Assembly (NCBI GenBank): GCA_050183625.1
Contig: JBFXBD010000022.1
Span: forward strand, 23,052 to 87,051
Length of the DNA stretch: 64,000 bases
Direction: 5' to 3'
Source: Gammaproteobacteria bacterium
Lineage (GTDB): Bacteria > Pseudomonadota > Gammaproteobacteria > JADZEE01
Shown here: positions 8,617-63,357 of the stretch, one piece after another
Position numbering within the stretch: position 1 is the stretch's first letter
Layout: each line of letters starts with the position of its first letter
Position numbers and translations under genes: made by a program
The notes under the pieces: generated by a model
Databases searched by the model: none
Told to the model about the DNA's origin: nothing
The model's input: the letters and a program-made list of their open reading frames with translations, nothing else

Positions 8617-8668
8617 GCCGGCGCGCACATCCGTGCTTGCGCGTTCCAACCCATGAGGAAATGACTGC

Positions 8669-10177: not shown

Positions 10178-10200
10178 TCGATCCGGAGATGGATCGATTG
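10178..10200 (+). terminator. Possible hairpin after the PQQ-DH stop
   Basis: atcgatccggagatggatcgat is an 8-bp inverted repeat immediately after the TGA, followed by a T-containing tract. Confidence 0.25.
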
Positions 10201-10285
10201 TTTCCGATTCGACGATTCGAGCGAGCGAATCGGGAGCAGGATCCGTCCCCAGGAGATCCATGATGATCGTGAAAAGGGCGCGGGG

Positions 10286-20884: not shown

Positions 20885-21262
20885 GGCATGCCACTGTTTC
20901 GCACGTCCGCGGGCAACCATTCGGGCCGTGCGTCGCAGGCACGAACCGCGGTGGCGGATCGATCCGCGGCGACGCCGCGCCGGTTTCCTGGCCTGGATCA
21001 AGTCCGCGGCGTTGCGGCGGCCGGCGCGTCGCTGATCCGCAATACCGGCCGCTGTTAGAATCCCGCAAGCTGTTTCATCCGCGCCGCGCTTGGGCTCATG
21101 CCGCACGCGCCTGCCTGAACGGCGGGCCGTTTTCGTTGTCCGATGCATCTTGTGCCGGTGTCGGGGGCATCGCCGAACAGTGCCGGGGGTCCCGTCGCGC
21201 GATCATCGCGCCGCCGGCAGCCGCGGCTTTTCGGTCGCGGTTCTATTTCGAAGGAGGAGTTC

Positions 21263-42480: not shown

Positions 42481-42639
42481 TGGCGGGCTCCGTTGCGCGT
42501 GCGCGGCGTCGTGTCCCGCGCCGGCTAGTGTGCGCCGGAACGCGCCTCTATACTGCAGTCCGGTCCGGCGCGGGCAGGCTGCGACAGGGAAGTCGGACAT
42601 CCGCTCCCGGCGCGCCGGCCGATATGGATTGAACTCCCA

Positions 42640-43803
42640 GTGTCGAGACTCAAGTCTCCCAGGATCCTTTATCCCGTCGCAACCCTGCTGGCCGCGACCG
42701 CGGCGGCCGCATTGCTGATCGCGACGGGTCCGGAGCTCGAACACCAGCCGGCCGCCGCGAGCGCGCCGAGCGTGGACTACATCATCGCCAAGGCGGCGCG
42801 CGCGACGCTCAAGGTGCACGCCCAGGGCAGCGTCGAGCCGCGCACCGAAGCCGCGTTGGTCCCGGAAGTGTCCGGCACCGTGGTCGAGGTCTCGCCGCAG
42901 ATGGTCTCGGGCGGCCGGTTCGAGCAGGGCGATTGGCTGGTCCGCATCGACGATCGCGACTACCGCTATGCGTTGGCGCAGGCGCGCGCCGCACTGGAGG
43001 GGGCGGGCGCGGAGCTCGAACACGGCCGCTACGAGCATGAGCGCCTGTCCAAGCTCCTGGAACGCAACCTTGCCAGCCGCACGGCCGCCGATGGCGCGCA
43101 GCGCGCCCTGCGTGCCGCGCAGGCCGGGCACAAGCAGGCGCAGGCGGCAGTCGCGCGCGCGGAACTCGATCTGCAACGCACCGGGCTGCGCGCGCCGTTC
43201 AGCGGCAGGGTGCGCAGCGAGGAAGTGGACGTCGGCCAGTTCGTCGACCGCGGCGAGCGCATCGCGGTGCTCTACGCCACCGACTACGTCGACATCCGCC
43301 TGCCGTTGGCGGATCGGCAGCTGGGCTTCCTCGCACCCGGCGTGCTCGAAGGCGGCACGGCTGCCTCGGCGCCGGTGCGGATCCGCGCCACGCTGGGCGG
43401 GCAGGCGCGCGAGTGGCGCGGGTTCCTGCACCGCACCGAGGGCGAGATCGACCGGCGCAGCCGCATGATTCACGTCGTCGCACGCGTCAGCGGGGCGGAG
43501 AACGCCGGGCAGCCGCCGTTGCCGGTCGGCCTGTTCGTGCAGGCCGAGATCCAGGGGCGCGAGCTGGAACGCGCGTATACCCTGCCCCGGGCTGCGATCC
43601 GCGATGGCCGCCGGGTGCTGGTCATCGACGCGGAGAATCGGCTGCGGTTTCGCGAGGTCGAGATCCTGCGCATCGACGACGAGTCGGTCATCGTGGGCGG
43701 CGGCCTGCGCGACGGGGAACGGATCTGCGTGTCGCAGTTGCAGGCCGCGGTCGAGAACATGGCGGTCAAGCCGTCCGCCGTCGTCGGCGCCGGCGCGGGC
43801 TGA
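42640..43803 (+). CDS. RND efflux periplasmic adaptor (membrane fusion protein)
   Basis: There is an N-terminal membrane anchor, a coiled-coil region and a beta-barrel/lipoyl-like region (RAPFSGRV). Confidence 0.8.
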   Translation: MSRLKSPRILYPVATLLAATAAAALLIATGPELEHQPAAASAPSVDYIIAKAARATLKVHAQGSVEPRTEAALVPEVSGTVVEVSPQMVSGGRFEQGDWLVRIDDRDYRYALAQARAALEGAGAELEHGRYEHERLSKLLERNLASRTAADGAQRALRAAQAGHKQAQAAVARAELDLQRTGLRAPFSGRVRSEEVDVGQFVDRGERIAVLYATDYVDIRLPLADRQLGFLAPGVLEGGTAASAPVRIRATLGGQAREWRGFLHRTEGEIDRRSRMIHVVARVSGAENAGQPPLPVGLFVQAEIQGRELERAYTLPRAAIRDGRRVLVIDAENRLRFREVEILRIDDESVIVGGGLRDGERICVSQLQAAVENMAVKPSAVVGAGAG

Positions 43804-43812
43804 GTCCGGCCG

Positions 43813-46800
43813 ATGAAGTCGCTCATCGCCTGGTTCGTCGACAACCCGGTGGCGGCCAACCTGATCGCGCTGGTCATCTGCGTCGGCGGCATATTGCAGT
43901 TGTTCACCCTGCACAAGGAGGAGTTCCCAAGCATCGACACCGAGACGATTTCGATCCAGGTGCCGTTCCCGGGCGCGGCGCCGGAGGAAGTCGAGAATTC
44001 GGTCTGCGTGCGCATCGAGGAGGCGCTCGAGGGGATCGAAGGCATCAAGCGGGTGATCACGACGGCGAACGAGGGTTCGTGCGCCATTTCCGTCGAGCTG
44101 CTCACCGGCGCGAACAAGAGCAAGGCCCTGGACGAGGTCAATTCAGCGGTCGATGGAATCGATTCCTTCCCGGTGGACACCGAGCGGCCCGGCATCGCCG
44201 AGGTGACGATGAAAACGACGGTCATGGAGCTCGTCGTATCCGGGAACCTGGATGAACGCTCGCTCAAGGAGCTCGCCCAGAGCGTGCGCGACGAGTTGAC
44301 CGAGCTGCCCGGGGTGTCCCAGGTCACGCTGTTGTACGTGCGTCCCTACGAGGTGTCGATCGAGGTATCCGAACAGACGTTGCGACAGTTCGGCCTGACG
44401 CTGGGCGCGGTGGCCGAGGCGGTAAGGGCCGGCTCGGCGGATGTGCCGGGCGGCTCGGTCAAGACCGAAAGCGGCGAAGTCATGTTGCGCGCCAAGGGGC
44501 AGCGCTACGTGGGGACGCAGTTCGAGGACATCCCGGTGATTGCCCGCGCCGACGGAACGGTCGTGCGGCTGGGGGAAATCGCCACCATCGTGGACGGTTT
44601 CGAGGACACCGATCTGCGCGCACGCTTCGACGGCGAGCCGGCGATGGCGCTGCGAATCGAACGTGTCGGTGACGAAGACACCCTGGCCATCGCCGAGCGT
44701 GTCAAGCAGTACCTGAGTGCCAGGCAGCGGGAGTTGCCGCCGGGAGCCAGGCTCCAGATCTGGCGCGACGAGTCGCTCGAACTCGTCGATCGGCTCGACG
44801 TCCTGCTGGCCAACGCGGCCGGGGGGCTGGCTCTGGTGCTGTTGACGCTGGCGCTGTTCCTGAGGTTCCGAATCGCATTGTGGGTCGCGGCGGGCCTGCC
44901 CGTGGCGATGCTCGGGGCGGTGCTGCTGTTTTCGAAGTTCGGCGTGTCGATCAACTCGTTGTCGGTGATGGGGTTGCTGCTCAGCATCGGCATCCTGGTC
45001 GACGACGCAATCGTCGTGGGCGAGCGCGTGCACGCGCGCGAGTCGCAGGGCGAGGACCCACGTACCGCCGCGATCGAGGGCACCAACGAAGTGGCGATCC
45101 CGGTCTTCTTCGGCGTGCTGACGACGGTCGCCGCGTTTTATCCGATGCTCACCCTGCCCGGGCAGATGAATGCGTTTTTCGGCGCCGCCGGCATCACCGT
45201 GGTGCTCTGCCTCCTGTTCTCGCTCGCCGAATCCCAGCTCGTACTGCCGGCGCATCTGGCGCATCGGGGACGCGGCGTGTCGTCGGCGCCGTGGGTGCGG
45301 CGTTGGATTGGATTCCAGGACCGGATTTCCGCGGGTCTCATGCGCTGGGCGCAGGGACCGTACCGGCGCCAGCTCGCGAGCGCATTGCGGTGGCGCTACC
45401 TCGTGCTTGCCATCGCCGCCGCCGCATTCATCCTCACCGGCGGCCTGATCGCCAGCGGACGGCTGATGTTCCAGTTCTTCCCGTCGGTGGAGGGCGATCG
45501 GGTCTACGCCACGCTGGTGATGCCCGAAGGCGCGGCGCTCGCCCAGACCGCCATGGCAGCCAGGCGGCTCGAGGACAGCGCCCGACGGCTGCAGGCGGAG
45601 TTGGATCGGGACAACCCGCTGGACGGCGGGCGCAGCAACTTCGTGCATGTGCTCTCGTCGATCGGAACATCGCTGGGCAAGGGCGCAATCGCCTTCGGCC
45701 AGAGCAGCGGCAGCCACATCGCCGAAGTCGGCATCGAGCTGCCGCATTATCATGAGCGCAACGGGCTGTCCTCCGGGGAGGTGGCGGCGCGTTGGCGCGA
45801 ACTCACCGGGCCGATCAGCGGCGTGGTGCAGCTTGGCTTCAGCGCCCAGGCCTTCGGGGTCGGCATGCCGGTCGACGTGCAATTGCGTGGTCGCGACGTC
45901 GCGCAGCTCGCAAGCGCGGCGGCCGAACTGCGCTCGACCCTCGCGCAGTACGATGGGGTGATGGACATCGCCGATACGTTCCGCCCAGGCAAGCAGGAGC
46001 TGACGCTCAGGATCCGGCCCGAGGCGGAACTGCTGGGCCTGAGCCAGCGTGAACTCGGCCGGCAGGTGCGCCAGGCCTTCTACGGCGAGGAAGCCCAACG
46101 CGTGCAGCGCGGCCGGGACGACGTACGCGTGATGGTGAGATTCCCGGAATCCGAGCGGGTTTCGCTGGGCAATTTCGAGCACATGCGGATCCGCGCCGCC
46201 GACGGTACCGAGGTGCCGTCGCTGAGCGTCGCCGATGCGAACCTGGGCATGGGCTACGCCACGATCCATCGCATCGACGGCCGGCGCGTCGTCAGCGTCA
46301 CGGCCGATGTCGATCGCAGCCGCGTGGCGCCGGAGGAGATCCTCGGCAGGCTGGTCGAGCAGGATCTGCCTCGACTGCTGGAGAAGTACCCAGGGGTCTC
46401 CTATGCGCTCGCGGGGGAGGCGGAGAACCGCGACGAGTCGATGTCCGGGCTCCTGAATTCCACCATCATCGCCCTGCTTCTCATCTTTGCGCTGCTCGCG
46501 ATCCCGCTGCGCAGCTACGTGCAGCCGCTGGTGATCATGAGCGCCATTCCATTCGGCATCATCGGCGCGCTGCTGGGCCACCTCATCATGGGCATGGACC
46601 CGGTGTTTTTCTCGCTGCTCGGGATCGTCGCGCTGTCCGGCGTGGTGGTGAACTCGAGCCTGGTGCTGGTCGACTACATCAACGTCCAGGTCCGCCGCGG
46701 CGTGCCGTTGGAGCAGGCGGTCATGGACGCCGGTGTTCGGCGCTTCCGGCCTATATTCCTCACCTCGGTGACCACCTGCGTCGGCCTCGGGCCGCTGATG

Positions 46801-46983
46801 GCGACCACCAACTTCGCCACCTCCATGTTCGTTCCCATGGCGGTGTCGATGGCGTTCGGCGTCCTGTTCGCGACGGTGATAACGCTCTACCTGATCCCCG
46901 CCCTTTGCCTCATCCTCGACGATCTGCGCCGGTTGCGCGCGGTGCCGGTGGCGGAGCAGGGCGAACCGCCGGGGTTGCGATAG
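43813..46983 (+). CDS. RND efflux transporter permease (AcrB/HAE family)
   Basis: It is 1056 aa with 12 TM helices and two large periplasmic loops. The N-terminus MKSLIAWFVDNPVAANLIALVI is typical. Confidence 0.85.
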   Translation: MKSLIAWFVDNPVAANLIALVICVGGILQLFTLHKEEFPSIDTETISIQVPFPGAAPEEVENSVCVRIEEALEGIEGIKRVITTANEGSCAISVELLTGANKSKALDEVNSAVDGIDSFPVDTERPGIAEVTMKTTVMELVVSGNLDERSLKELAQSVRDELTELPGVSQVTLLYVRPYEVSIEVSEQTLRQFGLTLGAVAEAVRAGSADVPGGSVKTESGEVMLRAKGQRYVGTQFEDIPVIARADGTVVRLGEIATIVDGFEDTDLRARFDGEPAMALRIERVGDEDTLAIAERVKQYLSARQRELPPGARLQIWRDESLELVDRLDVLLANAAGGLALVLLTLALFLRFRIALWVAAGLPVAMLGAVLLFSKFGVSINSLSVMGLLLSIGILVDDAIVVGERVHARESQGEDPRTAAIEGTNEVAIPVFFGVLTTVAAFYPMLTLPGQMNAFFGAAGITVVLCLLFSLAESQLVLPAHLAHRGRGVSSAPWVRRWIGFQDRISAGLMRWAQGPYRRQLASALRWRYLVLAIAAAAFILTGGLIASGRLMFQFFPSVEGDRVYATLVMPEGAALAQTAMAARRLEDSARRLQAELDRDNPLDGGRSNFVHVLSSIGTSLGKGAIAFGQSSGSHIAEVGIELPHYHERNGLSSGEVAARWRELTGPISGVVQLGFSAQAFGVGMPVDVQLRGRDVAQLASAAAELRSTLAQYDGVMDIADTFRPGKQELTLRIRPEAELLGLSQRELGRQVRQAFYGEEAQRVQRGRDDVRVMVRFPESERVSLGNFEHMRIRAADGTEVPSLSVADANLGMGYATIHRIDGRRVVSVTADVDRSRVAPEEILGRLVEQDLPRLLEKYPGVSYALAGEAENRDESMSGLLNSTIIALLLIFALLAIPLRSYVQPLVIMSAIPFGIIGALLGHLIMGMDPVFFSLLGIVALSGVVVNSSLVLVDYINVQVRRGVPLEQAVMDAGVRRFRPIFLTSVTTCVGLGPLMATTNFATSMFVPMAVSMAFGVLFATVITLYLIPALCLILDDLRRLRAVPVAEQGEPPGLR

Positions 46984-51596: not shown

Positions 51597-51838
51597 GCGG
51601 CATAGACCTCGGGGCTTGCGCGCCGGCGCAGGCCGGGGGCCAGCATGAGCAGGCCGGAGATCCGCAACGGCAGGCATGATTCCTCCCTCCGATCCAGCCA
51701 CCGTATCCGCGCTGCTGCGTCTACGGATCTAACCGGGCTCGCGGGGTGAAGTGTTCTGATGGAACGCACCATTCGCTATAGTGTCCAAGGTTCTTGGCTT
51801 CAGCGCGTTGCAGAGCCCAGCCGACAGGAGAATCCCGC

Positions 51839-52327
51839 GTGGCAAAGTTGAAAGTCAACGGTCGGATCGTCGATGTCGAGGTCGAGCCGGACACCCCCCT
51901 GCTCTGGGTGCTGCGCGAGCAGCTCGGCCTGACCGGTACCAAGTACGGCTGCGGTATCGCCCAGTGCGGTTCCTGCACCGTATTGATCGGTGGCACTGCG
52001 ATCCGAAGCTGCGTCATGCCGGTCTCCGCGGTCGCCGCGGATCAGGACGTCGTCACGATCGAAGGGCTCTCGCCGCAGGGCAACCATCCGGTGCAACAGG
52101 CCTGGGCGGAGCTGGACGTACCGCAGTGCGGTTATTGCCAGGCCGGAATGATCATGGCGGCAACCGCGCTGCTCAACGCCAATCGCTCGCCCACGGACGA
52201 CGACATCGACGCCCAGATCACGAACATCTGCCGCTGCGGCACCTACAACCGCGTGCGCGCGGCCATCAAGCTGGCGGCGCGCAGCGGCGTGGCAGCCGCG
52301 GTTTCAGCAAGCGAGGAACGTTCATGA
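51839..52327 (+). CDS. iorA: [2Fe-2S]-binding small subunit of a molybdenum hydroxylase (IorA-like)
   Basis: [11 protein letters not shown] is the plant-type ferredoxin cluster motif. [11 protein letters not shown]...CRCGTY is the second cluster motif. CAGGAGAA precedes the GTG at 51839. Confidence 0.8.
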
Positions 52328-54510
52328 GCGGCATCGATGCATCGGCGCGGGTTTCGCGTCGCCAGTTTCTCGCCGGCGCGGCGGGCACCGGCCTGTTGTT
52401 GGGCTTTCATTTCCCGATGCGTGCCGCGGCCGAGGCCGGAAGCGCGGCCGCCGCGCTTCCCGAGATCAACGCCTGGGTCCAGATCGAATCCGACGAGCGC
52501 GTGATCATCCGCATCGCGCGCTCGGAGATGGGGCAAGGCACCCTGACCGGCCTGGCGCAGCTCGTGGCCGAGGAGCTGGAATGCGATTGGTCGCGCGTGA
52601 CCACGGAATATCCCACGCCCGGGGCGAACCTGGCGCGCAATCGCGTCTGGGGCGACTTCATGACCGGCGGCAGTCGCGGCATCCGGGCCAGCCAGGAGTA
52701 CGTGCGCAAGGGCGGCGCAGCGGCGCGCATGATGCTGGTACAGGCCGCCGCGAACCAGTTCGGCGTGCCGGCATCCGAGTGCCGCGTGGAGCGCGGCGTG
52801 ATTACCCACCCGGCGTCGAATCGTCGCACGACGTACGGCCAGGTGGCTGCCGCCGCCGCGAAGCTCGAACCGCCGGCCGACGTGCCACTGAAGGATCCCG
52901 GCGCGTGGACCGTGGCGGGCCGGTCGGTCAAGCGCCTGGACACGCTCGACAAGCTCACGGGCAAGCAGGTGTTCGGCGTCGATCTGAAACTGCCCGGGAT
53001 GTTGAATGCAGCAATCAAGGACTGCCCGGTGTTCGGCGGAACCTTGAAGAGCTTCGACCCGGCGGCGGTGCAGAAGATGCCCGGCGTGCAGAAGGTCGTG
53101 CGCGTCGGCGATTCCGCGGTGGCCGTGGTCGCGGATACCTGGTGGCGCGCCAAGACCGCGCTCGACGCGTTGCCGATCGTCTGGGATGAGGGGCCGAATG
53201 CGTCGATATCCAGCGCCGACATCGATGCGCTGGTTGCGAGCGGCCTGGATGCGGAGCAGGCGGTCGTCGGCAATCAGGCGGGCGACGTGAAATCGGCCAT
53301 CCGCACCGCGGCGAAAACCGTCGAAGCGGTGTACAGCTTTCCGTTCCAGAATCACGCCACCATGGAACCCATGACGGCAACCGCGCGCTGGACACCCGAG
53401 CGGTGCGAGGTCTGGTGCCCGACCCAGAACGGCGAGGCCGCGCTCGCCGTCGCCATCGAAGCGTCGGGCCTGCGCGCCGAGCAGTGCGACGTCCACAAAT
53501 TTCATCTCGGCGGAGGGTTCGGCCGGCGCGGCCAGTCGGACTACGTACGCCAGGCGATAGCGATCGCCAGGCAGGTCCCCGGCACGCCGGTCAAGCTCAT
53601 CTGGACCCGGCAGGAGGACATGCTGCACGGCTATTTTCACCCCACCACCCAATGCAGGCTGACCGGCGCGCTCGACGCGCACGGCAACCTGACCGGCCTG
53701 CACATGCGCATATCAGGGCAGTCGATCCTTGCGGCGCTGATGCCGCAGAACGTGCAGAACGGGCGTGATCCCGTCGTCTTCCAAGGGCTGCTGCCCGAGG
53801 GTTCGGAGGGGCGGCTCGGCTACGACATTGCCAATCTGCTGATCGATCACGCCATGCGCAACCCGCACATCCGCCCGGGGTTCTGGCGCGGCGTGAACCA
53901 CAACCAGAACGCAATCTACCTGGAGTGCTTCATCGACGAGTGCGCCCACGCGGCGGGACGCGATCCCCTGGAGTTCCGGCGCGCGCTGATGGCAAATCAC
54001 CCCAGGCACCTGGCGGCGCTGAATGCCGCCGCGGAGCGCGCCGGCTGGGGCAAGCCGGCGGCGCCGGGGGTGCACCGCGGCCTGGCGCAGATCATGGGGT
54101 TCGGTTCCTACGTCGCGGCCGTAGCCGAAGTCTCGGTGAGCGCGGCGGGCAAGCTCAGGATCCATCGCATCGTCGCGGCGACCGACACCGGCGTCGTCGT
54201 CAACCCCCAGCAGGTCGAAGCGCAGGTGGAAGGCTCGTTCGTCTACGGCCTGTCCGCCGTCCTGTTCGGTGCATGCACCGTGGCCAATGGACGGATCGTG
54301 GAGACCAACTTCGATACCTACCCCGTGATGCGCATGGACTCCATGCCCGCCGTGGAAACGGAGCTCCTGGCCTCGGGCGGGTTCTGGGGCGGCGTCGGCG
54401 AGCCGACCATCGCGGTCGCCGGGCCTGCCGTGCTGAACGCGATCTTCGCGGCGACAGGCAAGCGGATCCGTCGCCTGCCGTTGAAGGACCAGGACATCCG
54501 TCCAGCCTGA
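52324..54510 (+). CDS. iorB: Molybdopterin-binding large subunit of xanthine-oxidase-family hydroxylase (IorB/membrane aldehyde dehydrogenase-like), TAT-exported
   Basis: [11 protein letters not shown] is a twin-arginine signal. It is 728 aa with aldehyde oxidase / xanthine dehydrogenase MPT-domain motifs. The start overlaps the iorA stop (ATGA). Confidence 0.8.
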
Positions 54511-54518
54511 GCACTGCC

Positions 54519-54815
54519 ATGCGCGACACGCTGGTACTGGTTGCGACCATGCTGTCGCCGCTCGCGGCGGCAGCGGGGGGCACCGGTGATCGCGCGCCGC
54601 CGGGTGCTGAGTCCTGCTACGGCTGTCATCGCTCTTCGGGCGCGGACCCGGGGCCCGTGCCCTCGCTCGCGGGATTGTCCGCGGCGTCGATTGCCGAGGC
54701 GATGCGGGCGTTTCGCGCGGGCGAGCGCACACCGACCGTGATGGATCGCATTGCCAGGGGATACTCGGCAGAAGAAGTCGAGCGCCTCGCGACCTGGCTG
54801 GCATCGCAACGCTAG
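54519..54815 (+). CDS. Small monoheme c-type cytochrome (FccA/SoxE-like)
   Basis: It is 98 aa with a CYGCH heme motif after a signal-like N-terminus. It starts 8 nt after the iorB stop, and a flavoprotein gene lies 7 nt downstream. Confidence 0.65.
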   Translation: MRDTLVLVATMLSPLAAAAGGTGDRAPPGAESCYGCHRSSGADPGPVPSLAGLSAASIAEAMRAFRAGERTPTVMDRIARGYSAEEVERLATWLASQR

Positions 54816-54822
54816 CGGGACC

Positions 54823-56100
54823 GTGAACGCAGGAGCAACGCCCTTTTCACGCCGCGCCTTCCTGGCTGGCGCGGGAACGTTCGCGTCTCTGGCGATCTTA
54901 CGGCGCGCGCGTGCGGACCGAACCGCGCGGGTGGTCGTCGTGGGCGGAGGATTCGCTGGCGCCAGTGCCGCACGCCGCCTGGCGCTACGGGGCTTGCGGG
55001 TCCATCTCGTCGAAGAGGACGGCAACTACACCGCTTGCCCATTCAGCAACAGCGTCGTGGCCGGCGTGCGTGATCCCGAGCGGCAACTTTTCGGCTATCG
55101 GGCGGTCGAGAAAGCTGGCGTCAGCCGTGTCCGGCTCCGGGCGGTCGGAGTCGATGCCGATCGACGGCGCGTCACCCTGAGCGACGGTTCGACACTGGAC
55201 TACGACCGCCTGATCCTGGCTCCGGGGATCGAAGTACGCCTGGATGCGCTGCCCGGCTACGACGCGGCGGCCTCCCGGCGAATGCCGCACGCGTGGCAGG
55301 CGGGCGCGCAGACGCTGCTGTTGCGGCGCCAGCTCGAAGCGATGAACGACGGCGGCACCGTCGTCATCGTGGTGCCACCGAATCCGTATCGGTGCCCGCC
55401 GGGACCATACGAGCGGGCAAGCCTGATCGCGCATTACCTCGAGACGCGCAAGCCGCGCTCGAAGCTGATCGTGCTCGATGCGAAGGACACGTTTTCCAAG
55501 CAGCCGCTGTTCGTGGCGGCCTGGAAGGACCTGTATCCGGGGATCATCGAGTACGTGCCCCTGTCGGACGGTGGGAAGGTGATTTCCGTCGATGCCAAGT
55601 CGCTCAGCGTCGAGGCCGAGTTCGGACGGCACCGTGCTGATGTGGCGAACGTGATTGCGCCGCAACGCGCGGCGCGCATCGCCGATCAGGCCGGCGTGGC
55701 GGATCGAAGCGGTTGGTGTCCGATCGATCCGATTACGTTCGAGTCGCGGCTGATCCCGAAGATCCACGTGATCGGCGATGCGGCGATCGGCGGCGCAATG
55801 CCCAAGTCGGCGTTCGTCGCCAACCAGCAGGCGATTGCCTGCGCGGCCGCGGTCGCGGACCTGATTGCCGGCGTCGTGCCGGCCACGCCGAAGCTCGTGA
55901 ACACCTGCTACAGCCTGGTCGCGCCCGACTACGGCATATCGATTGCCGGCGTGTTTGCACCCAACGCGGACGGCGTGCTGGCCGAAGTGCCCGGTTCGGG
56001 GGGACTCAGCCCGATCGATGCGCCACGCGCGGTGCGCGCGCTGGAAGCGCGTTATGCCCAGGCGTGGTTCGATACGATCACGCGCGATGTCTTTGGTTGA
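54823..56100 (+). CDS. fccB: Flavocytochrome c sulfide dehydrogenase flavoprotein subunit (FccB/SoxF-like)
   Basis: SRRAFLAGAGTFAS is a TAT signal. VVVVGGGFAGASAARRLA is an FAD motif, with FccB-type C-terminal region. A GTG start at 54823 is assumed, because the longer ATG start would overlap the cytochrome gene. Confidence 0.7.
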   Translation: MNAGATPFSRRAFLAGAGTFASLAILRRARADRTARVVVVGGGFAGASAARRLALRGLRVHLVEEDGNYTACPFSNSVVAGVRDPERQLFGYRAVEKAGVSRVRLRAVGVDADRRRVTLSDGSTLDYDRLILAPGIEVRLDALPGYDAAASRRMPHAWQAGAQTLLLRRQLEAMNDGGTVVIVVPPNPYRCPPGPYERASLIAHYLETRKPRSKLIVLDAKDTFSKQPLFVAAWKDLYPGIIEYVPLSDGGKVISVDAKSLSVEAEFGRHRADVANVIAPQRAARIADQAGVADRSGWCPIDPITFESRLIPKIHVIGDAAIGGAMPKSAFVANQQAIACAAAVADLIAGVVPATPKLVNTCYSLVAPDYGISIAGVFAPNADGVLAEVPGSGGLSPIDAPRAVRALEARYAQAWFDTITRDVFG

Positions 56101-56555
56101 TGCGCGCCTGGATGCCGATGGCCATGCTCGTGCTCTCGACGGCGCAGGCCGAGGAAGGCGAACGCGCCGGTACGTCGCTCACCGGTCGTCCGGGTGATCC
56201 CGCCCGAGGCCGGGAGATCGTCGTCAGCCGTGAGCACGGCCTGTGCCTGCTCTGCCATTCCGGACCGTTTCCGCAGGAGCGCTTCCAGGGCGACCTGGCG
56301 ACGGACCTGAGCGGTGCGGGCACACGGTGGACCGCGAGCGAACTCCGCCTGCGACTGATGGACCCGCAATCGTTGGACCCCGCCTCGATCATGCCGGCGT
56401 ACTATCGAACCGAGGGACTGACCCGCGTCGGCGCGGGCTGGCGCGGGCGTACCGTTCTCAGCGCCGGGCAGATCGAAGACGTCGTCGCTTTCCTGATGAC
56501 GTTGCGCGATCCGAACGCGTCGGAACCGGGCGCGAACGGGGAGGGTGGGCGATGA
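56100..56555 (+). CDS. soxX: SoxX-type monoheme cytochrome c
   Basis: CLLCH is a heme motif, and LRLRLMDPQSLDPASIMPAYYRTEGLTRV matches the SoxX C-terminal signature. The ATG overlaps the fccB stop. Confidence 0.7.
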   Translation: MRAWMPMAMLVLSTAQAEEGERAGTSLTGRPGDPARGREIVVSREHGLCLLCHSGPFPQERFQGDLATDLSGAGTRWTASELRLRLMDPQSLDPASIMPAYYRTEGLTRVGAGWRGRTVLSAGQIEDVVAFLMTLRDPNASEPGANGEGGR

Positions 56556-57028
56556 AGCCCCGGACGTCCAGGCGCCGTCTGACGCGGCGGGAGCTGATTG
56601 CACGTGGGAACGGCGTGGCGCTCGCACTGCTGCTGAGCTCTGCGAAAGCCGATCCGGAGGGCCTCGCGGCGGCGATTGCCGAGTTCACCGGCGGGCGTGC
56701 GCCGAGTCCGCAGCGCGTGACACTCGACATCCCCCCGCTCGTCGAGAACGGTAATTCGGTACCCGCGACCGTCACGGTGGAAAGCCCGATGTCGCAGGCC
56801 GACTACGTACGCCGCATCGCCCTGTTCGCGCAGAAGAACCCACAACCCCTGATTGCCGTGTTCACGGTCGGTCCGCGGTCAGGCCGTGCGAAAGTGTCCA
56901 TCCGCTTTCGCCTGCGTGGCTCGCAGCAAGTGGTGGCAGTGGCGGAGCTCTCCGACGGCAGCTACTGTTCGGCGAGCGCCGAAGTGCTGGTCACGCTCGC
57001 CGCCTGCGTCGAGAGCGAACCGGCCTGA
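56552..57028 (+). CDS. SoxY-homologous sulfur-carrier protein with a non-canonical AACVE C-terminal arm
   Basis: There is a TAT-like N-terminus and a full SoxY core (EFTGG...VENGNSVP...SPMSQADYVRRIALFA...VVAVAELSDGS). It ends ...VLVTLAACVESEPA rather than ...VTIGGCGG. GGGGAGGG lies upstream, and the start overlaps the soxX stop. Confidence 0.75.
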   Translation: MKPRTSRRRLTRRELIARGNGVALALLLSSAKADPEGLAAAIAEFTGGRAPSPQRVTLDIPPLVENGNSVPATVTVESPMSQADYVRRIALFAQKNPQPLIAVFTVGPRSGRAKVSIRFRLRGSQQVVAVAELSDGSYCSASAEVLVTLAACVESEPA

Positions 57029-57045
57029 ATGCGGGGAACTCCGGG

Positions 57046-57366
57046 GTGAACCGCGCGTTGATCAATCTGCCGCGGACCGCCAGGCGCGGCGACATCGTCG
57101 AAATCCGGGTGCTCATCGCGCATCCGATGGAATCCGGATTTCGCGCGGGGGCCGATGGCGCACTGCTGCCGCGCAATATCATCACGCGTTTCACCTGCCG
57201 CTATCGGGGGGTCGAGGTGTTCAGCGCCGAGTTCTATCCCTCGGTCGCGGCCAATCCGTTCCTTTCGTTTCCGCTGATTGCCGAGGAAAGCGGCGAGCTG
57301 TTGTTCACGTGGACGGGCGACCACGGCTTCGAGCAGTCCGAGACGGCCACGTTGGCGGTCGAATGA
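57046..57366 (+). CDS. soxZ: SoxZ sulfur-carrier complex subunit
   Basis: RGDIVEIRVLIAHPMESGFR and FTWTGDHGFEQSETATLAVE are typical SoxZ motifs. It is 106 aa. Confidence 0.8.
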   Translation: MNRALINLPRTARRGDIVEIRVLIAHPMESGFRAGADGALLPRNIITRFTCRYRGVEVFSAEFYPSVAANPFLSFPLIAEESGELLFTWTGDHGFEQSETATLAVE

Positions 57367-57410
57367 GAGGTGGGGTTTTCGAGGGCGCGCCGATACGGCC
57401 TGGGCCGTCG

Positions 57411-58244
57411 ATGCGACGGATCCGAGTGTTCGTGGCGTCTGCCGAGGGCAGGAGATGCCTGATTGCGTCGTTGGTTCTGCTCGCCTCGATGCTCGGCTGC
57501 GTACGAGCGGTGACGCCCGCGAGCGGGAGCGCGAAGGCGATCCCCACCAGCGAACGTCGCTCGGGATTCGAGTTCATGCGGGCCGAGACCCAGTCGCTGC
57601 AGCGCGACGACACGGCCAACCCCGGCATGCTCTGGGTTGCCGACGGCGCGGCCCTGTTCTCTGCGCCGGCAGGGACGAGCAACCGTGCTTGCGCGGATTG
57701 CCACCCGGATCGCCTGGCCGGGGTCGCGGCGCGGTATCCCGCGTACGATCCCGGGAAGAAGGCGGCCATCGATCTCGCGCAACGCATCAATACCTGCCGC
57801 ACGCGGCAGCAACGGGCACGGCCGCTGGCACCGGAGAGCCGGGATCTGCTGGCGCTCAACGCCTTCGTCGCGCATCAGTCGCGCGGCCTGCCAATCCAGG
57901 ACCCGGCGCGCGATCCGCGCCTCGCTCGGGCGATCGTCAATGGGCGCACGCTCTACATGCAGCGGATCGGACAACTCAACCTGTCCTGTGCTCAATGTCA
58001 CGACCGGCACTGGGGCCGCAGGCTCGCCGGCAATGTCATTCCGCAGGCGCACCCGACCGGCTATCCGCTGTATCGCCTGGAGTGGCAGGGGCTGGGTTCG
58101 CTGCAGCGCCGCTTGCGCAACTGCATGACGGGCGTACGTGCCGAGCCCTACGACTACGGCTCGCAGGAAATGATCGATCTCGAAGTGTTCCTGGCGTCCC
58201 GCGCCGCCGGGCTTGCGATTGAAACACCCGCCGTGCGCCCATGA
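57411..58244 (+). CDS. soxA: SoxA diheme cytochrome c
   Basis: CADCH and CAQCH are heme motifs, and RLRNCMTGVRAEPYDYGSQEMIDLEVFLA matches the SoxA C-terminal signature. Confidence 0.8.
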   Translation: MRRIRVFVASAEGRRCLIASLVLLASMLGCVRAVTPASGSAKAIPTSERRSGFEFMRAETQSLQRDDTANPGMLWVADGAALFSAPAGTSNRACADCHPDRLAGVAARYPAYDPGKKAAIDLAQRINTCRTRQQRARPLAPESRDLLALNAFVAHQSRGLPIQDPARDPRLARAIVNGRTLYMQRIGQLNLSCAQCHDRHWGRRLAGNVIPQAHPTGYPLYRLEWQGLGSLQRRLRNCMTGVRAEPYDYGSQEMIDLEVFLASRAAGLAIETPAVRP

Positions 58245-58290: not shown

Positions 58291-59499
58291 ATGGTGACAG
58301 GCACGCAGGAGCTGCGCCGGCACGCGCGCCCGCTTGTCGCCGCCACGCTCGGCATGGGCTTCGGGCTGCAGCTTGCACTTTACGCCGCGGGCCTGTTCGG
58401 ACCGGCGCTGATCGCGGAGTTCGGCTGGACGAAGTCGCAGTATGCCCTGCCCGGCGTACTCGCCTTCGTCACGGTGTTCGTGTTTCCGTTGGCCGGCCGG
58501 CTGACCGATCGGCTCGGTGTGCGGCGGGTCGCGGCCATGGGGATCGCGGGTGTCGCGGCTGTTACGGTCGGCATGGGCCTGATGACCGGGCCGTACTGGC
58601 AGTTCCTCGCGCTCAGTCTCGGCAAGACCGTCTTCGGCACGATGGCCACGACGGCGGTGTTCACGCGCCTGGTCGCAGAGCGCTTCGACGCTGCGCGTGG
58701 CGTCGCGCTGGCCGTAGTGATCAGCGGTCCGCCCCTGATCGCCGCGGGGGCGATCCCCCTGCTCGATGGAATCATCGCCGACCAGGGCTGGCGCACGGCC
58801 TATTTCGTATTGGGCGGCATGATCCTGGCTGGCGGCGGTCTGGCCCTGCTGCTCGCGCCGCGAACCGGCGTCAACCACTTCCGAGGCGCGGCGCGGCCGG
58901 ACAGCTTCCGCGCCGATTTCCGGCGGATTGCGCGGCGCAGGGTGTTCTGGGTGCTTCTGGCCGCGATGTTCCTGGTCAACATGCCCCAGGTGCTTGGCGG
59001 TGCGCAACTCAAGCTCATGGCGATGGACAGCGGCGCCACCTCCACCATCGCCGTGGCGATGATGTCGACGTACGCAATCGGCGTGGTGTGCGGCCGCCTC
59101 GCTTGCGGCCTTGCCCTGGACCGGCTGCCCGCGCATCTGGTCGCCTTCGGATCATTGATGCTGCCGGCTGCGGGCTTCCTGGCGCTTTATTCACCCTTCG
59201 ACCCGGCATGGATCCTGATCGGTGGCATGGCGATGATCGGTCTCGCGCAGGGCTCCGAGGGCGACATCGCAGCCTATATGGTGGCGCGCCACTTCGATAT
59301 CGCGAACTACAGCTTCGTCCTGTCGATGGTGTCCTCCGCGCTCACCGCCGGCGCGGCCACCGGCTCGCTCGTGCTGACCGCCATGCTGCACGTGACCGAC
59401 GATTTCACGCCCTTCGTCCTGCTGGCCGCCATCGTGTCTTTCCTGGGCGCTTCGACCTTCCTTCTGATCGGGCGCCCATCGCGTACGGAGGCGACTTGA
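58291..59499 (+). CDS. MFS transporter
   Basis: There are 12 predicted TM helices with an MFS-like repeat architecture. It is paralogous to the next gene. GGAG precedes the ATG at 58291. Confidence 0.7.
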   Translation: MVTGTQELRRHARPLVAATLGMGFGLQLALYAAGLFGPALIAEFGWTKSQYALPGVLAFVTVFVFPLAGRLTDRLGVRRVAAMGIAGVAAVTVGMGLMTGPYWQFLALSLGKTVFGTMATTAVFTRLVAERFDAARGVALAVVISGPPLIAAGAIPLLDGIIADQGWRTAYFVLGGMILAGGGLALLLAPRTGVNHFRGAARPDSFRADFRRIARRRVFWVLLAAMFLVNMPQVLGGAQLKLMAMDSGATSTIAVAMMSTYAIGVVCGRLACGLALDRLPAHLVAFGSLMLPAAGFLALYSPFDPAWILIGGMAMIGLAQGSEGDIAAYMVARHFDIANYSFVLSMVSSALTAGAATGSLVLTAMLHVTDDFTPFVLLAAIVSFLGASTFLLIGRPSRTEAT

Positions 59500-59592: not shown

Positions 59593-60837
59593 ATGACCGG
59601 TCGGGCGTACGCGGTGATGGTCGTGACCTATAGCGAGGAATTGCGCAGGCATGTACGCCCGCTGATTGCGGCGTGCATCGGCCTGGGCTTTGGGGGAGCG
59701 CTCAGCGTCTACACACAGGGTCTTTTCGGCCCGTCCCTGATTGCCGAATTCGGCTGGAGCAAGTCGCAGTTCGCACTGGTGGGCGTCACGAGCTTCGCCT
59801 TCGTGTTCATCATTCCGATCGCCGGGCGGCTGACGGATCGCTACGGGGTGCGACGGGTGGCTACGGTGGCCACGCTCGGGCACCCGGCCGTCACCTTCGC
59901 CCTGGGACTGATGAATGGAAACTTCACGCTGTTCCTCGCGCTCATGATGGCCAAGACGTGCCTGGGCGCGATGGCGACCACGACCATCTACACGCGCCTG
60001 GTCGCCGAACGGTTCACCGTGGCGCGCGGCTTCGCGCTGGCCGTGGTGACCAGTGGCCCGCCGCTGGTCGGCGCCATCGCCGCGCCGATCCTTGCCGGCG
60101 TCATCCAGGCGCACGGCTGGCGAGCGGGCTTCTTCACCCTCGCCGGCGCGATCCTCGCCGGCGGCGTGACGGCCCTGCTGCCGGTGCCGAAACGGGAGCA
60201 ACCGGCAAATCCGGGCAGGCGCCGGGGCAACGCCTTCCTGGTCGATTTCCTGGCGCTTGCCCGCGCCCGCGTGTTCTGGCTGCTCCTGGGCGGGATGTTC
60301 CTGTGCAACCTGCCCCAGGCCCTGGCGGGCACGCAGCTCATGCTCATGGCGCTGGACAGCGGTGCAACCCACGAAATCGCCGTCGCGATGATGTCCAGCT
60401 ACGCCCTGGGGGTCATCACCGGCCGCTTCGCCTGCGGCCTGGCGCTGGATCGCGCGCCTGCCAATCGGGTGGCGTTCGTGTCGTTGATCCTGCCCGCGCT
60501 CGGCTTCGCCGCGCTGTATTCGCCCTATGACGCCGGCTGGTTCCTCGTCGCGGGGATGGCGCTGGTGGGCCTGGCGCAAGGCGCCGAGGGAGATATCGCC
60601 GCCTATGTCGTCTCGCGCCACTTCGAGCTGGCGCACTACAGCTTCGTGCTCGGATTCGTGTCCGCATCCCTGGCAGCGGCGGCGGCGACCGGCGCCCTGC
60701 TGCTCAGCCTGATGTTGCGGGTGGAGGAGAGCTACATGCCGTTCCTGCTGGTCTGCGCCGTCGCCACCTTCGGTGGTGCCGCGACGCTGCTCATGATCGG
60801 CCGGGGGACACCGAAGCCCGTCGTCATCTCGCATTGA
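59593..60837 (+). CDS. MFS transporter (tandem paralog)
   Basis: It is about 45-50% identical to the upstream MFS gene (ELRRH...GLFGP.LIAEFGW.KSQ). The start codon is uncertain (GTG 59542, ATG 59593 or ATG 59617). Confidence 0.65.
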   Translation: MTGRAYAVMVVTYSEELRRHVRPLIAACIGLGFGGALSVYTQGLFGPSLIAEFGWSKSQFALVGVTSFAFVFIIPIAGRLTDRYGVRRVATVATLGHPAVTFALGLMNGNFTLFLALMMAKTCLGAMATTTIYTRLVAERFTVARGFALAVVTSGPPLVGAIAAPILAGVIQAHGWRAGFFTLAGAILAGGVTALLPVPKREQPANPGRRRGNAFLVDFLALARARVFWLLLGGMFLCNLPQALAGTQLMLMALDSGATHEIAVAMMSSYALGVITGRFACGLALDRAPANRVAFVSLILPALGFAALYSPYDAGWFLVAGMALVGLAQGAEGDIAAYVVSRHFELAHYSFVLGFVSASLAAAAATGALLLSLMLRVEESYMPFLLVCAVATFGGAATLLMIGRGTPKPVVISH

Positions 60838-60937: not shown

Positions 60938-61212
60938 CGAACCGCCCCTTCGTCGTCACGAGGCCGCACCCGGGCAGCCCCGGCCGATTATGGCCATGAA
61001 CGATCGTCGTCGCGAGCGCAGCGAAGCGACCCAAGCAGCCTTGATGCCACCGGCACCGCGTGGATTGCTTCGTCGCTTCGCTCCTCGCAATGACGGGGTG
61101 CGGTTCATGGATAGCGCAGCGAAGCAATCCATGCGGCGCCAATGACGGTAACGCCGCATGGATTGCCGCGGCCGCTACGCGGGCTTGCGATGACGGGGCC
61201 GGTTCATGGATG
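60938..61212. repeat. Composite palindromic REP/MITE-like element, copy 5 (longest, four or more units)
   Basis: It shares the ccggccgatt(a/g)tggccatgaacgatcgtcgtcgcgagcgcagcgaagcgaccca unit with copy 2 and the gcgtggattgcttcgtcgcttcgctcctcgcaatgacg unit with copies 1 and 4. Its last unit (ggttcatgg) supplies the stop codon of the adjacent gene. Confidence 0.7.
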
Positions 61213-63357
61213 GCGCCGTGACAGCGCGAGGCCGAGGCAGGGCACGCCAAGCAGCAACAACGTTCCCGGCAACGGCACGACCGTCGGGCCGGCGGCCGTG
61301 ATGAACGCGAAGTCTCCGTTGCCCAGGTGCTGCCCGGACAAGGCGTTGTACAGGCCCGGATCGCCCGCGGTCGCGTTGAATATCGTGCCGGTGTCAGGCA
61401 CCAGCGTCGCCCAGACTGCGAACGGATCCAGTCCAGACAGGACCTGCGGTCCACCGCCTCCGAAGAGATCACTGCTCGCGTAGCCACCGCTCAGGAGCGG
61501 CTGGAGAAACCCAGTATCCGTCTCCGAAGGATCAACGCCCAGCCGCGGGTTCAGGAGTATTTCGCCGGTCAGGTTGATGAACAGCAGCATGTCGAAGCCG
61601 GTGTAGTCGTCACTGTAGCCGGCGGGCCCGAGGTCCATGCGGTACAGGACAAAGCCGGCATCGTCCGGCGCCGCAGCGCGTACCGCGTCGAAATCCGGCA
61701 CCAGTGCATCGATCCCCGAGAGCAGGCCATAGAGTTCCGCGCCGCCCGTCAGATCCGCGATAAGAGGCGTGCTGATGCCGCCGGCGATGAACGGATTGTC
61801 GCCACGCGGACCGGCGAACGAACTCGTGCTGGCCCCCGCAACCGCGCCCGGACCGCCACCGGCGGCGTTGCTGCCGAGGATCAGCCTGCCATTCGCGCCG
61901 GTGCTGGCGCCGCCACCGCCATTGGCGTTGACCGTCGCACTGCCCGCGCTGATCACCGTCCCGTACAACTTGACCGTGCCCCCGGCGCCGCCGCTGCCGA
62001 CGCCACCGTTGCCGCCGACCGCGCCGGTGCCGCCCTTGCCACCGGTGCCGCCACTGCCGCCGTCGCCCCCGTCGCCGGCATCCGGGCAGGCGAAGCATCC
62101 GACTCCGCCGGCGCTGCCCGAAGTACCGAGCCCGCCCCCCTGCCCCTGGCTGAAGATCGTGAGCCCGTCGTTGAGTCCGGCATTGCTGCTGGTGCCGCTG
62201 GCACCGCGCGCATCCAGCACGCTCCCGGCACCCACATTGACCCGTCCCTGCGCCATGATCTCGAATGCACCGCCGCCGCCGCCGCCGGCACCGCCATCGC
62301 CGCCATCGCCGCCGTGCCCCCCCGGACCGCCGGCGCCGCCGTTGCCACCCGTGCCACCGCTGCCACCGGTCAATCCACGCGCTCCGCCGCCTCCACCGCC
62401 ACCGCCGGCGCCGCCGCCGCCCTGGCCGCCGGCGCCACCCGTGCCGCCGCTTGCACCACCACCGCCACCCCCCCCGCCGCCACCGGAAATCGTCAGCCCC
62501 GTGCCGGCATTGCTCCCCGCAGCGCCGTTCGTGCCGTTGTTCCCCGTCAGTCCGGCATTCCCGGCGGCACCGAAGGTGCCGTTGCCGCCATCCTGGCCAT
62601 CGCCACCGCTACCGAAATAGTCGGTCGCCGAGGCACCGGGGTAGCCAGAGGAACCACCATTGGCGCTCAGCGTGACGCTCAGGGACGCCGTGGAACGACC
62701 CAGACCGCGATTGCCTCCGGCACCACCCGCCCCGCCGTTGATGCCGGAACCACCTGCCACTCCCAGGTGACCGGCACTGCTGTTGCCACCTCGCGAACCG
62801 GAGTTTCCGTTAGCCCCGTTGGGCGATGGTCCATAGAACCAGCCCGTGCACGAGGGAAGTGGGAAAGCGAATTCGCATTCCGTAAAGCCTCCCTGCCCGC
62901 CGACGGAACCGATGCCGCCGGTGCCACCGGCACCACCCGCCCCACCTGGACCGCCCGCGCCACCACCGCCTCCATTGCCGCCGCCCGCGCCCGCTGTGCG
63001 GCCGCTCGCGGCGAAGTTGAATGTCACGCCAGTGCCGATATTGACGTTGTTGCCGGCCAGCAGCGACGCCCCGCGCGCGCCGGTGCCGACCACCGTATCG
63101 TTGGCGTTGATGTTGAGATCGCCGGCGAAGCGGAACTGCATGATGCTGCCGCCGGATTCGATGCTGGTGAAGAACCGGGTTCCGTTGAAGAACCCGCCGC
63201 TGCCGACGCCATTGATCGTGCCGGCGCCGGTATCGATCGTGATGAGCGCGGCGTGCGCGCTGCCCGCCGAACAGAGCCCCGACACCAGTGCCGAGACGAG
63301 CAACATCCGGGTACGTGCCGGCGTTTCCGGGTGCGTCGTTATTGTTCTGGTTTCCAT
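61204..63357 (-). CDS. Glycine-rich secreted protein with PEP-CTERM sorting tail (717 aa)
   Basis: There is a signal peptide (MLLVSALVSGLCSAGSAHA), long GGxGG/GAGG low-complexity tracts, and the C-terminus VVPLPGTLLLLGVPCLGLALSRRHP. GAGAGGG lies upstream of the ATG at 63357. Confidence 0.65.
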   Translation of the reverse strand: METRTITTHPETPARTRMLLVSALVSGLCSAGSAHAALITIDTGAGTINGVGSGGFFNGTRFFTSIESGGSIMQFRFAGDLNINANDTVVGTGARGASLLAGNNVNIGTGVTFNFAASGRTAGAGGGNGGGGGAGGPGGAGGAGGTGGIGSVGGQGGFTECEFAFPLPSCTGWFYGPSPNGANGNSGSRGGNSSAGHLGVAGGSGINGGAGGAGGNRGLGRSTASLSVTLSANGGSSGYPGASATDYFGSGGDGQDGGNGTFGAAGNAGLTGNNGTNGAAGSNAGTGLTISGGGGGGGGGGASGGTGGAGGQGGGGAGGGGGGGGARGLTGGSGGTGGNGGAGGPGGHGGDGGDGGAGGGGGGAFEIMAQGRVNVGAGSVLDARGASGTSSNAGLNDGLTIFSQGQGGGLGTSGSAGGVGCFACPDAGDGGDGGSGGTGGKGGTGAVGGNGGVGSGGAGGTVKLYGTVISAGSATVNANGGGGASTGANGRLILGSNAAGGGPGAVAGASTSSFAGPRGDNPFIAGGISTPLIADLTGGAELYGLLSGIDALVPDFDAVRAAAPDDAGFVLYRMDLGPAGYSDDYTGFDMLLFINLTGEILLNPRLGVDPSETDTGFLQPLLSGGYASSDLFGGGGPQVLSGLDPFAVWATLVPDTGTIFNATAGDPGLYNALSGQHLGNGDFAFITAAGPTVVPLPGTLLLLGVPCLGLALSRRHP

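Follow-up and report, generated by a model that had tools for sequence, protein, structure and literature searches.

The window analysed here is a 64-kb stretch of DNA from the metagenome-assembled genome of an uncultured gammaproteobacterium, and its subject is a compact gene cassette at positions 51839-58244 that joins a molybdenum hydroxylase of the xanthine oxidase family (IorAB), a flavocytochrome c and a SoxXYZA-like set of sulfur-oxidation proteins. As the window has a G+C content of about 69%, genes were called from third-position GC (GC3 frame analysis) and translation, and not from the length of open reading frames (ORFs). Together with hidden Markov model (HMM) searches, these calls demonstrated that eight plus-strand genes fill 51839-58244 exactly, in the order 5' to 3' IorA, IorB, cytochrome c, FccB, SoxX, a variant of SoxY (hereafter SoxY'), SoxZ and SoxA. 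The compact co-directional unit described in an earlier note on this DNA was thus recovered, including the overlaps that the note had reported at iorA/iorB (ATGA, -4 nt), fccB/soxX (TGATG, -1 nt) and soxX/soxY (ATGA, -4 nt). The cytochrome c gene begins 8 nt after iorB and ends 7 nt ahead of fccB, and soxZ follows soxY after 17 nt. The last junction depends on the start codon chosen for SoxA, the distance from soxZ being -4 nt with a start at 57363 and +44 nt with one at 57411; a third candidate at 57432 is implied by a related NCBI record, and the short signal peptides of SoxA orthologues bear on the choice. The earlier note, which gave a spacing of 0-45 nt, had evidently adopted the start at 57411. 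Terminator-like sites were absent between the cassette genes, the weak hits being intragenic only, and the layout, with distances from -4 to +17 nt (or perhaps +44), is consistent with one transcript. The sole long gap ahead of the cluster is an intergenic region of 242 nt (51597..51838, plus strand), the probable promoter region of the cassette, which carries a ribosome-binding site, AGGAG, 8 nt ahead of the first start codon, a GTG at 51839. Neither a sigma-70 consensus nor an FNR-like box was found in this region, and a regulatory-signal search of the window yielded no Rfam family and no tRNA.

The first two genes encode the molybdenum enzyme. The IorA-like small subunit (51839..52327, plus strand; 162 aa; PF01799, Fer2_2, and PF00111, Fer2) binds two [2Fe-2S] clusters and has no signal peptide, whereas the IorB-like molybdopterin-binding large subunit (52324..54510, plus strand; 728 aa; PF02738, MoCoBD_1, and PF20256, MoCoBD_2) starts with the twin-arginine (Tat) signal SRRQFLAG, a motif retained across its orthologues. 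Conservation of residues was counted, here and below, over 38-81 orthologues, and residues were assigned through alignments with the structures 1H31, 5N1T, 1FCD and 2OX5. All eight cluster cysteines of IorA are kept in 70-72 of 72 orthologues; in IorB, Q342 is kept in 69 of 72, the GGGFGRR motif in 71-72 of 72 at each position and the catalytic E693 in all 72. IorB is the most conserved protein of the cassette, with a mean pairwise identity of 69% and at least 97% conservation at 205 of its 728 positions. Its conserved residues C361 and C388 were also considered as a disulfide-exchange site, an idea that was dropped as uninformative without a structure. With two [2Fe-2S] motifs, the molybdenum cofactor (MoCo) domains, the Gln/Glu residues and no gene in the cluster for an FAD-binding subunit of the CO-dehydrogenase type, the pair has the features of a two-subunit IorAB-type molybdenum hydroxylase, of which isoquinoline 1-oxidoreductase of Brevundimonas diminuta is an example; among NCBIfam equivalog models, none reaches its cutoff for the cassette IorAB. 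The closest solved relative is the large subunit of the membrane-bound aldehyde dehydrogenase of Gluconobacter (8GY3_C; full-length alignment, E 4e-83). Like the cassette enzyme, the latter combines a small subunit bearing two [2Fe-2S] clusters with a Tat-exported MoCo subunit and has no FAD subunit. Its third subunit is a trihaem cytochrome c; the cassette IorAB, in contrast, has no dedicated cytochrome c subunit and is always encoded with SoxXY'ZA. A Pfam scan of the about 47 likely genes across the window detected no maturation gene of the XdhC/PaoD type in the cassette or elsewhere in the window. A ModABC-like molybdate ABC transporter (14350-16909, minus strand; TOBE-domain ATPase, permease and SBP_bac_11) lies about 35 kb upstream of the cassette. 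The 1,190-aa fused 2-oxoacid:ferredoxin oxidoreductase-type protein encoded at 38000-41572 (minus strand; domains TPP_enzyme_C, POR and DUF6537) belongs to the indolepyruvate oxidoreductase family, the other bearer of the abbreviation Ior, and is unrelated to IorAB of the cassette.

The next two genes encode a flavocytochrome c. A monohaem cytochrome c of 98 aa (54519..54815, plus strand; PF00034; haem motif CYGCH) is the partner of FccB (54823..56100, plus strand; 425 aa), the flavoprotein of flavocytochrome c sulfide dehydrogenase, which carries the Tat signal RRAFLAG, the domains FCSD_central and FCSD-flav_bind (PF21706 and PF09242) and the motifs YTACPFSN, FRCPPGPYER and TCYSLV, and which matches 5N1T_A (E 6e-131) as well as 1FCD. 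In FccB, Cys72, which links the FAD, and the redox pair Cys191/Cys362 are kept in 61-64 of 64 orthologues, and the CxxCH motif of the cytochrome in all 38 that were detected, the cytochrome gene always adjoining that of FccB. The three cysteines, together with the monohaem cytochrome c gene 7 nt upstream, identify FccAB as a sulfide dehydrogenase.

The four remaining genes were checked against the Sox models, as the earlier note had proposed, and all scored above their family cutoffs. SoxX (56100..56555, plus strand; 151 aa) is a monohaem cytochrome with the motif CLLCH (TIGR04485, 66.8 bits against a cutoff of 61), and its CxxCH is kept in 80 of 80 orthologues. SoxZ (57046..57366, plus strand; 106 aa, without signal peptide; TIGR04490, 83.4 bits against a cutoff of 76; PF08770) is the carrier partner, whose gene always follows that of the SoxY variant. 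The dihaem cytochrome SoxA (57363..58244, plus strand; 293 aa from the start at 57363, with the alternatives 57411 and 57432; TIGR04484, 224 bits against a cutoff of 110) matches SoxA of Rhodovulum (1H31, E 7e-45), with Cys254 and Arg250 aligned to the active site. Both of its CxxCH motifs are kept in 78-79 of 79 orthologues, the haem-ligand Cys145 in 78 of 79 and the active-site residues Cys254 and Arg250 in 79 of 79 each.

SoxY' (56552..57028, plus strand; 158 aa, Tat signal) departs from the canonical carrier. It belongs to TIGR04487, the NCBIfam family "SoxY-related AACIE arm protein" (181 bits against a cutoff of 172), and falls short of the model for true SoxY with its GGCGG arm (TIGR04488, 101.7 bits against a cutoff of 125); an identical protein in NCBI already bears the AACIE-arm name. 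In place of GGCGG the protein ends in ...VTLAACVESEPA, with the arm ...VTLAAC152VESEPA, in which Cys152 falls exactly on the arm cysteine of Paracoccus SoxY in the alignment with 2OX5 and the glutamate at Cys+2 occupies the place of the C-terminal carboxylate in GGCGG. This cysteine is kept in 81 of 81 orthologues and the glutamate in 80 of 81, and nearly all of the 120 closest homologues end in VT[LI][AP]AC-x-E/D plus a short tail. It is clear, therefore, that SoxY is a real variant here, as the earlier note had held. An SPM-x-x-D-x-V insertion relative to Paracoccus SoxY was at first a candidate for a loop unique to SoxY', but was discarded since it also occurs in the canonical GGCGG SoxY of Indioceanicola.

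Besides the variant carrier, the cassette is set apart by what it lacks. The Pfam scan found no SoxB (a metallophosphoesterase/5'-nucleotidase-type protein), no SoxC, no SoxD and no second SoxY or SoxZ in the 64-kb window, nor any protein with an Oxidored_molyb or Mo-co_dimer domain. A tblastn search with a genuine SoxB, the annotated protein of the Methylosinus trichosporium OB3b plasmid pOB3b1, gave no match in the window and none within 10 kb of any cassette locus. The absence of SoxB and SoxCD from the window, as stated in the earlier note, is thus supported. That plasmid itself carries, at about 8236-11430, a canonical sox fragment with SoxZ, SoxB and DsrE-family genes, its soxY apparently truncated beside an IS6 transposase. 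Compared with the canonical thiosulfate-oxidising system of Paracoccus pantotrophus, the cassette shares SoxX and a type-I-like dihaem SoxA with the active-site cysteine ligand and arginine, a SoxYZ-type carrier with an aligned arm cysteine and an optional FccB/SoxF. However, its arm is AAC-x-E followed by 0-6 further residues instead of a C-terminal GGCGG, neither SoxB nor SoxCD is encoded within the window, and in place of SoxCD, which has the sulfite-oxidase fold, there stands an unrelated molybdenum enzyme with the xanthine-oxidase fold.

To place the cassette among its relatives, an alignment of the carrier was used to scan 185,579 species-representative genomes, and the best 80 loci served as the comparison set. 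Of these genomes, at least 561 contain relatives of the SoxY variant, whose family is also very abundant in metagenomes from soil. The synteny search for IorAB beside SoxX-Y-Z-A that the earlier note had called for recovered the same arrangement across related loci. In tblastn searches with the proteins of the window, IorA-IorB was found directly upstream and on the same strand in all 73 loci with enough upstream sequence, a count that includes one locus truncated by the end of its contig and two long-read assemblies with frameshifts. The cassette loci span Alpha- and Betaproteobacteria with unrelated flanks; in the neighbourhoods from Belnapia and Variibacter, for example, all eight genes recur in unchanged order between unrelated flanking genes. 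The closest homologues of IorB are 71-78% identical to it, and the two that were checked (from Bosea sp. WAO and Ferrovibrio) both lie in such cassettes. Because the identical order recurs in every related locus examined, the gene arrangement is far beyond chance. The earlier note had left room for the arrangement being a common, characterised one: common it proved to be, by these counts, and characterised it is not.

Two main forms of the cassette occur, one of eight genes and one of six, the latter without the cytochrome c and FccB; a single locus is reduced to IorAB-SoxY'Z. A bona fide sulfide dehydrogenase is present in 57 of 70 cassettes. Average-linkage clustering on IorB and SoxA identities scatters the six-gene loci over several separate places, and in Duganella and Roseomonas marmotae the Fcc pair is placed after SoxA. 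As FccAB is missing from some loci and relocated in others, it is an optional, movable accessory, and the core consists of IorAB and SoxXY'ZA. The parts of this core diverge together. Pairwise-identity matrices of IorB correlate with those of SoxY, SoxZ and SoxA at r = 0.73-0.78, and the Sox proteins correlate with one another, SoxX excluded, at r = 0.74-0.82. The AACIE-arm carrier thus has in IorAB an obligate partner that diverges along with it, and the view of the earlier note that the xanthine-oxidase-family enzyme is an integral partner and no chance neighbour is confirmed by its linkage at all 73 loci and by a divergence that tracks that of the Sox proteins. Given the invariant active sites and the correlated divergence, the cassette is inherited and constrained as one unit. 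The idea of a decaying duplicate was rejected, since the cofactor and catalytic residues are essentially invariant and the parts diverge together.

The flanking regions add little that is shared. Behind SoxA come two paralogous MFS_1 genes (58291-59499 and 59593-60837, both plus strand), with gaps of 46 and 93 nt; both weakly resemble lactate and oxalate/formate-type carriers, below the model cutoffs. No counterparts of these two genes, or of the other neighbours in the window, were found at the other loci, and since they are not conserved beside the cassette elsewhere, the MFS genes are probably not part of its system. The earlier note was right about their position immediately behind the cassette. 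Clustering of 1,042 ORFs from the flanks of 78 loci revealed no specific, broadly conserved family, the commonest being a generic ABC ATPase at 25 loci. Genes for a response regulator of the OmpR type and a HAMP histidine kinase adjoin the cassette in 9-12 loci from several families (ten loci, with the regulator also at two more), and the pair is a candidate for a dedicated regulator in those lineages; it is absent from the window. Furthermore, FNR/FixK-like boxes precede the cassette in a subset of loci, the window not being among them. An exact TTGA-N6-TCAA was found in Rubrivivax, Ancylobacter and Duganella, and TTGATTTGAACTGTTCCAA is shared by the Bradyrhizobium-type loci; such a box lies 85-137 nt upstream of iorA at three loci and about 80 nt upstream at fourteen. 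The presence of these boxes in some lineages hints at low-oxygen induction of the cassette in them.

The arrangement is not new: it was noticed in 2013, and the carrier has a curated family name. A "second sox gene cluster" (Snov_1975-1982) was then reported in Starkeya (Ancylobacter) novella, its function being left open (Kappler & Nouwens, PMC3797975). This cluster matches the window gene for gene in content (two genes for the molybdenum enzyme, two for a SoxF-like flavocytochrome c, then SoxX, SoxY, SoxZ and SoxA), its locus-tag numbering is consistent with the gene order in the window, and SoxB and SoxCD are missing from it as well. Three Ancylobacter loci of the comparison set have the same order as the window, with most proteins 56-76% identical, whereas the window differs in its host, a gammaproteobacterial genome assembled from a metagenome, in its flanks and in the two MFS genes that follow. 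By proteomics, SoxAX and SoxYZ of the second cluster of S. novella were undetected (PMC3797975). Bosea sp. WAO carries the six-gene cassette in addition to a complete canonical soxXYZABCD (PMC5894208), and in a term search the paper on this strain discusses the canonical cluster only (PMC5894208). In Bradyrhizobium diazoefficiens USDA110, soxY2 of sox locus II is reported to be dispensable for thiosulfate oxidation (Masuda et al. 2010, cited in PMC5748708); three Bradyrhizobium genomes of our set carry the eight-gene cassette, but it could not be confirmed that soxY2 of USDA110 encodes an AACIE-arm protein, as a homologue search seeded with a Bradyrhizobium member did not list this strain. A 2024 survey of SoxY diversity dropped sequences without a "GGC" motif (PMC11237559), and the AACIE-arm family was therefore left out of it. 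RefSeq records routinely annotate the cassette with these product names. The literature search retrieved no paper containing "AACIE" and none that pairs ior with sox gene names, and the sole paper found to link SoxAX with a xanthine oxidase family enzyme was that on S. novella (PMC3797975). A parallel in design is offered by the SoxYZ-like carriers (TIGR04557), which are consistently associated with periplasmic pyrroloquinoline quinone (PQQ) dehydrogenases (PMC12997753) and are likewise cysteine carriers tied to a periplasmic dehydrogenase and not to SoxB. These systems differ from the cassette in having a fused SoxYZ with a rhodanese and a SoxH-like hydrolase, no SoxXA and a PQQ enzyme as partner; the window proteins score 63 and 38 against TIGR04557, under its cutoff of 140.

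All eight products are predicted from their sequences to reach the periplasm. Tat signals are predicted on IorB, FccB and SoxY' and Sec-type leaders on SoxX and SoxA, while the signal-less IorA and SoxZ would presumably be co-exported with their partners, as SoxZ is in the canonical system. Our preferred reading, to which we give a probability of roughly 0.42, is that the cassette forms a self-contained carrier-based module for periplasmic sulfur oxidation, independent of SoxB and SoxCD, in which the sulfur carried by SoxY' would be processed by the molybdenum enzyme; in proposing it we infer the action of IorAB on the carrier, as well as substrate and chemistry. This reading draws on the linkage of IorAB at all 73 loci, the locus reduced to IorAB-SoxY'Z, the co-divergence of the parts, the lack of SoxB near any cassette and the essentially invariant catalytic and cofactor residues. 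The sulfide dehydrogenase in 57 of 70 cassettes indicates sulfide or sulfane as the input, and FccAB would oxidise sulfide. As the active site of SoxXA is intact, formation of an S-S bond with the carrier cysteine is expected: by oxidative coupling, SoxXA would attach a sulfur nucleophile to SoxY'Z at Cys152 of its AAC-x-E arm, yielding a carrier persulfide or a related adduct. IorAB, the only enzyme that remains for turnover of the carrier, would then take the place of SoxB and SoxCD and oxidise the sulfur on the carrier, the oxygen coming from water. The four-electron product, Cys-S-SO2-, would need no hydrolase to release sulfite and free the carrier, and the absence of SoxB would thereby be explained. 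Electrons would leave through the paired [2Fe-2S] clusters of IorA, reach the c-type haems of SoxXA and FccA and go on to the respiratory chain. IorAB has no cytochrome subunit of its own, and in the six-gene form SoxXA provides the only haems, a further point in favour of this reading. In the structure of SoxB with SoxYZ, the GGCGG arm threads into the narrow active-site channel of SoxB, and the AAC[VILT]E arm, being bulkier, is counted in favour of independence from SoxB. Low expression on thiosulfate in S. novella also fits another substrate (PMC3797975). The suggestion of the earlier note that the cassette has a role beyond canonical thiosulfate oxidation agrees with this expression and with the reported dispensability of soxY2 (PMC5748708), the family of this protein being unconfirmed.

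Several points weigh against this reading. The co-transcription of the eight genes is a conjecture drawn from their layout, and FccAB is missing from 13 of 70 cassettes. To our knowledge, no member of the xanthine oxidase family oxidises sulfur or takes a protein-bound substrate; characterised members hydroxylate C-H bonds of aldehydes and heterocycles, oxidise CO or act on aroyl-CoA. SoxB and SoxCD could moreover act in trans, given that S. novella and Bosea sp. WAO, the two cultured hosts checked for this, also have a complete canonical Sox system. Finally, the transcripts of the second cluster of S. novella were very low on glucose, methanol and thiosulfate alike (PMC3797975).

The chemistry of the enzyme family would be respected if the sulfur on the carrier were organic, as the earlier note had suggested with its organosulfur compound or C1/aldehyde-sulfur adduct. 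SoxXA would in that case load an organic thiol or a thiocarboxylate-type compound, or a (per)sulfide of the carrier would add to an aldehyde as a C1-sulfur adduct, and IorAB would hydroxylate a C-H bond of the tethered carbon, with hydrolytic release to follow. C-H hydroxylation next to a heteroatom is the sole chemistry known to us for the family, the closest solved relative of IorB is an aldehyde dehydrogenase, many hosts are methylotrophs or soil heterotrophs, and the arguments from linkage and co-divergence hold equally; the SoxY survey, too, speculates that divergent SoxY proteins may have roles in organosulfur or alcohol-linked metabolism (PMC11237559). Nevertheless, in the flanks of 78 loci no conserved neighbour, transporter or regulator points to a candidate substrate, the frequent sulfide dehydrogenase indicates inorganic sulfide, and expression in S. 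novella was very low on methanol too (PMC3797975); we regard this version as unlikely. More doubtful still is that IorAB never touches SoxY'Z and works in the periplasm as a normal dehydrogenase of free aldehydes or heterocycles, which either borrows SoxXA as its cytochrome partner or shares its regulation with a truncated Sox/Fcc module for sulfide, for instance for the removal of sulfide together with aldehyde. The full-length alignment of IorB with an aldehyde dehydrogenase that has a cytochrome c as third subunit agrees with such a role, as do the lack of this subunit in the cassette IorAB and the three haems supplied by SoxXA, but a carrier with an invariant arm cysteine in 81 of 81 loci, the locus holding IorAB and SoxY'Z only and the loss of SoxB everywhere are then left unexplained.

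The dependence could also run in the opposite direction, Sox and Fcc serving as a periplasmic sulfur relay in which the persulfide of SoxY' would re-insert the labile terminal sulfido ligand (Mo=S) of exported IorB, by analogy with the maintenance role proposed for the trio of rhodanese, SoxYZ-like and SoxH-like proteins beside PQQ dehydrogenases. Such carriers consistently accompany periplasmic PQQ dehydrogenases (PMC12997753). Moreover, no XdhC/PaoD-type gene is at hand in the cassette or the window, and IorAB with SoxY'Z is the tightest core seen. Yet four to six genes, among them those of a catalytically intact SoxXA, would be a heavy cost for the repair of one enzyme, and there is no precedent for it. 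Sulfuration of the cofactor, besides, takes place in the cytoplasm, before export, and we hold the relay to be very improbable. Least probable of all appears a cassette that duplicates the canonical Sox system as a redundant accessory, has little function of its own and depends on SoxB and SoxCD encoded elsewhere. That S. novella and Bosea sp. WAO possess complete sox clusters beside it, and that its expression in the former is very low (PMC3797975), are what such a duplicate would show, whereas the strong purifying selection at every active site, including the 205 highly conserved positions of IorB, the distinct conserved arm motif, the obligate link to IorAB and the abundance in soil metagenomes are not. 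On the preferred reading of a module that oxidises carrier-bound sulfur, or on its organic version, IorAB would be the first molybdoenzyme of the xanthine oxidase family to take as its substrate an adduct of sulfur (or of sulfur and carbon) bound to a protein and presented on a SoxY-type arm, and the cassette would represent a third route of carrier regeneration, next to hydrolysis by SoxB and oxidation by SoxCD, widespread in soil Alpha- and Betaproteobacteria and mostly overlooked; we place this wider proposition just short of even odds.

Elsewhere in the window, a further arrangement of periplasmic dehydrogenase and cytochrome is found at 8669-10177 (plus strand), where a soluble glucose/sorbosone dehydrogenase domain is fused to a C-terminal cytochrome c domain. 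An MbnP-family protein (21143-22189) is encoded beside a dihaem cytochrome c peroxidase of the MbnH-like type (22198-23364, both plus strand), a pair linked to copper acquisition. Two overlapping ORFs on opposite strands, 41725-43473 (minus) and 42529-43803 (plus), both have high third-position GC and Pfam hits, to a methyltransferase and an HlyD-type adaptor; the adaptor precedes an AcrB-type RND pump at 43813-46983. Beyond the MFS genes, 61204-63357 (minus strand) encodes a glycine-rich secreted protein of 717 aa with an N-terminal signal peptide, no Pfam hit and a C-terminal PEP-CTERM-like sorting signal, VPLPGTLLLLG...SRRHP; its glycine-rich repeats yield a long spurious ORF on the opposite strand.

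The copy in the window is one more case, from an uncultured lineage, of a cassette that is already known but unexplained in function, and by itself it adds little; the linkage of IorAB to the Sox genes is common and had already been noticed, though it is uncharacterised. The comparative result, namely an obligate and co-diverging IorAB with SoxB never nearby, sharpens a testable question, and this question is directly testable because culturable hosts exist, among them Ancylobacter/Starkeya novellus, Bosea sp. WAO, Bradyrhizobium and Methylobacterium. Surveys of genomes and metagenomes count SoxA, SoxX and SoxZ of the cassette as thiosulfate-oxidation genes. If the molybdenum hydroxylase does work on the carrier, gene inventories of the sulfur cycle would be mis-assigning a distinct pathway, and substrates of a new kind would be added to those of the xanthine oxidase family.

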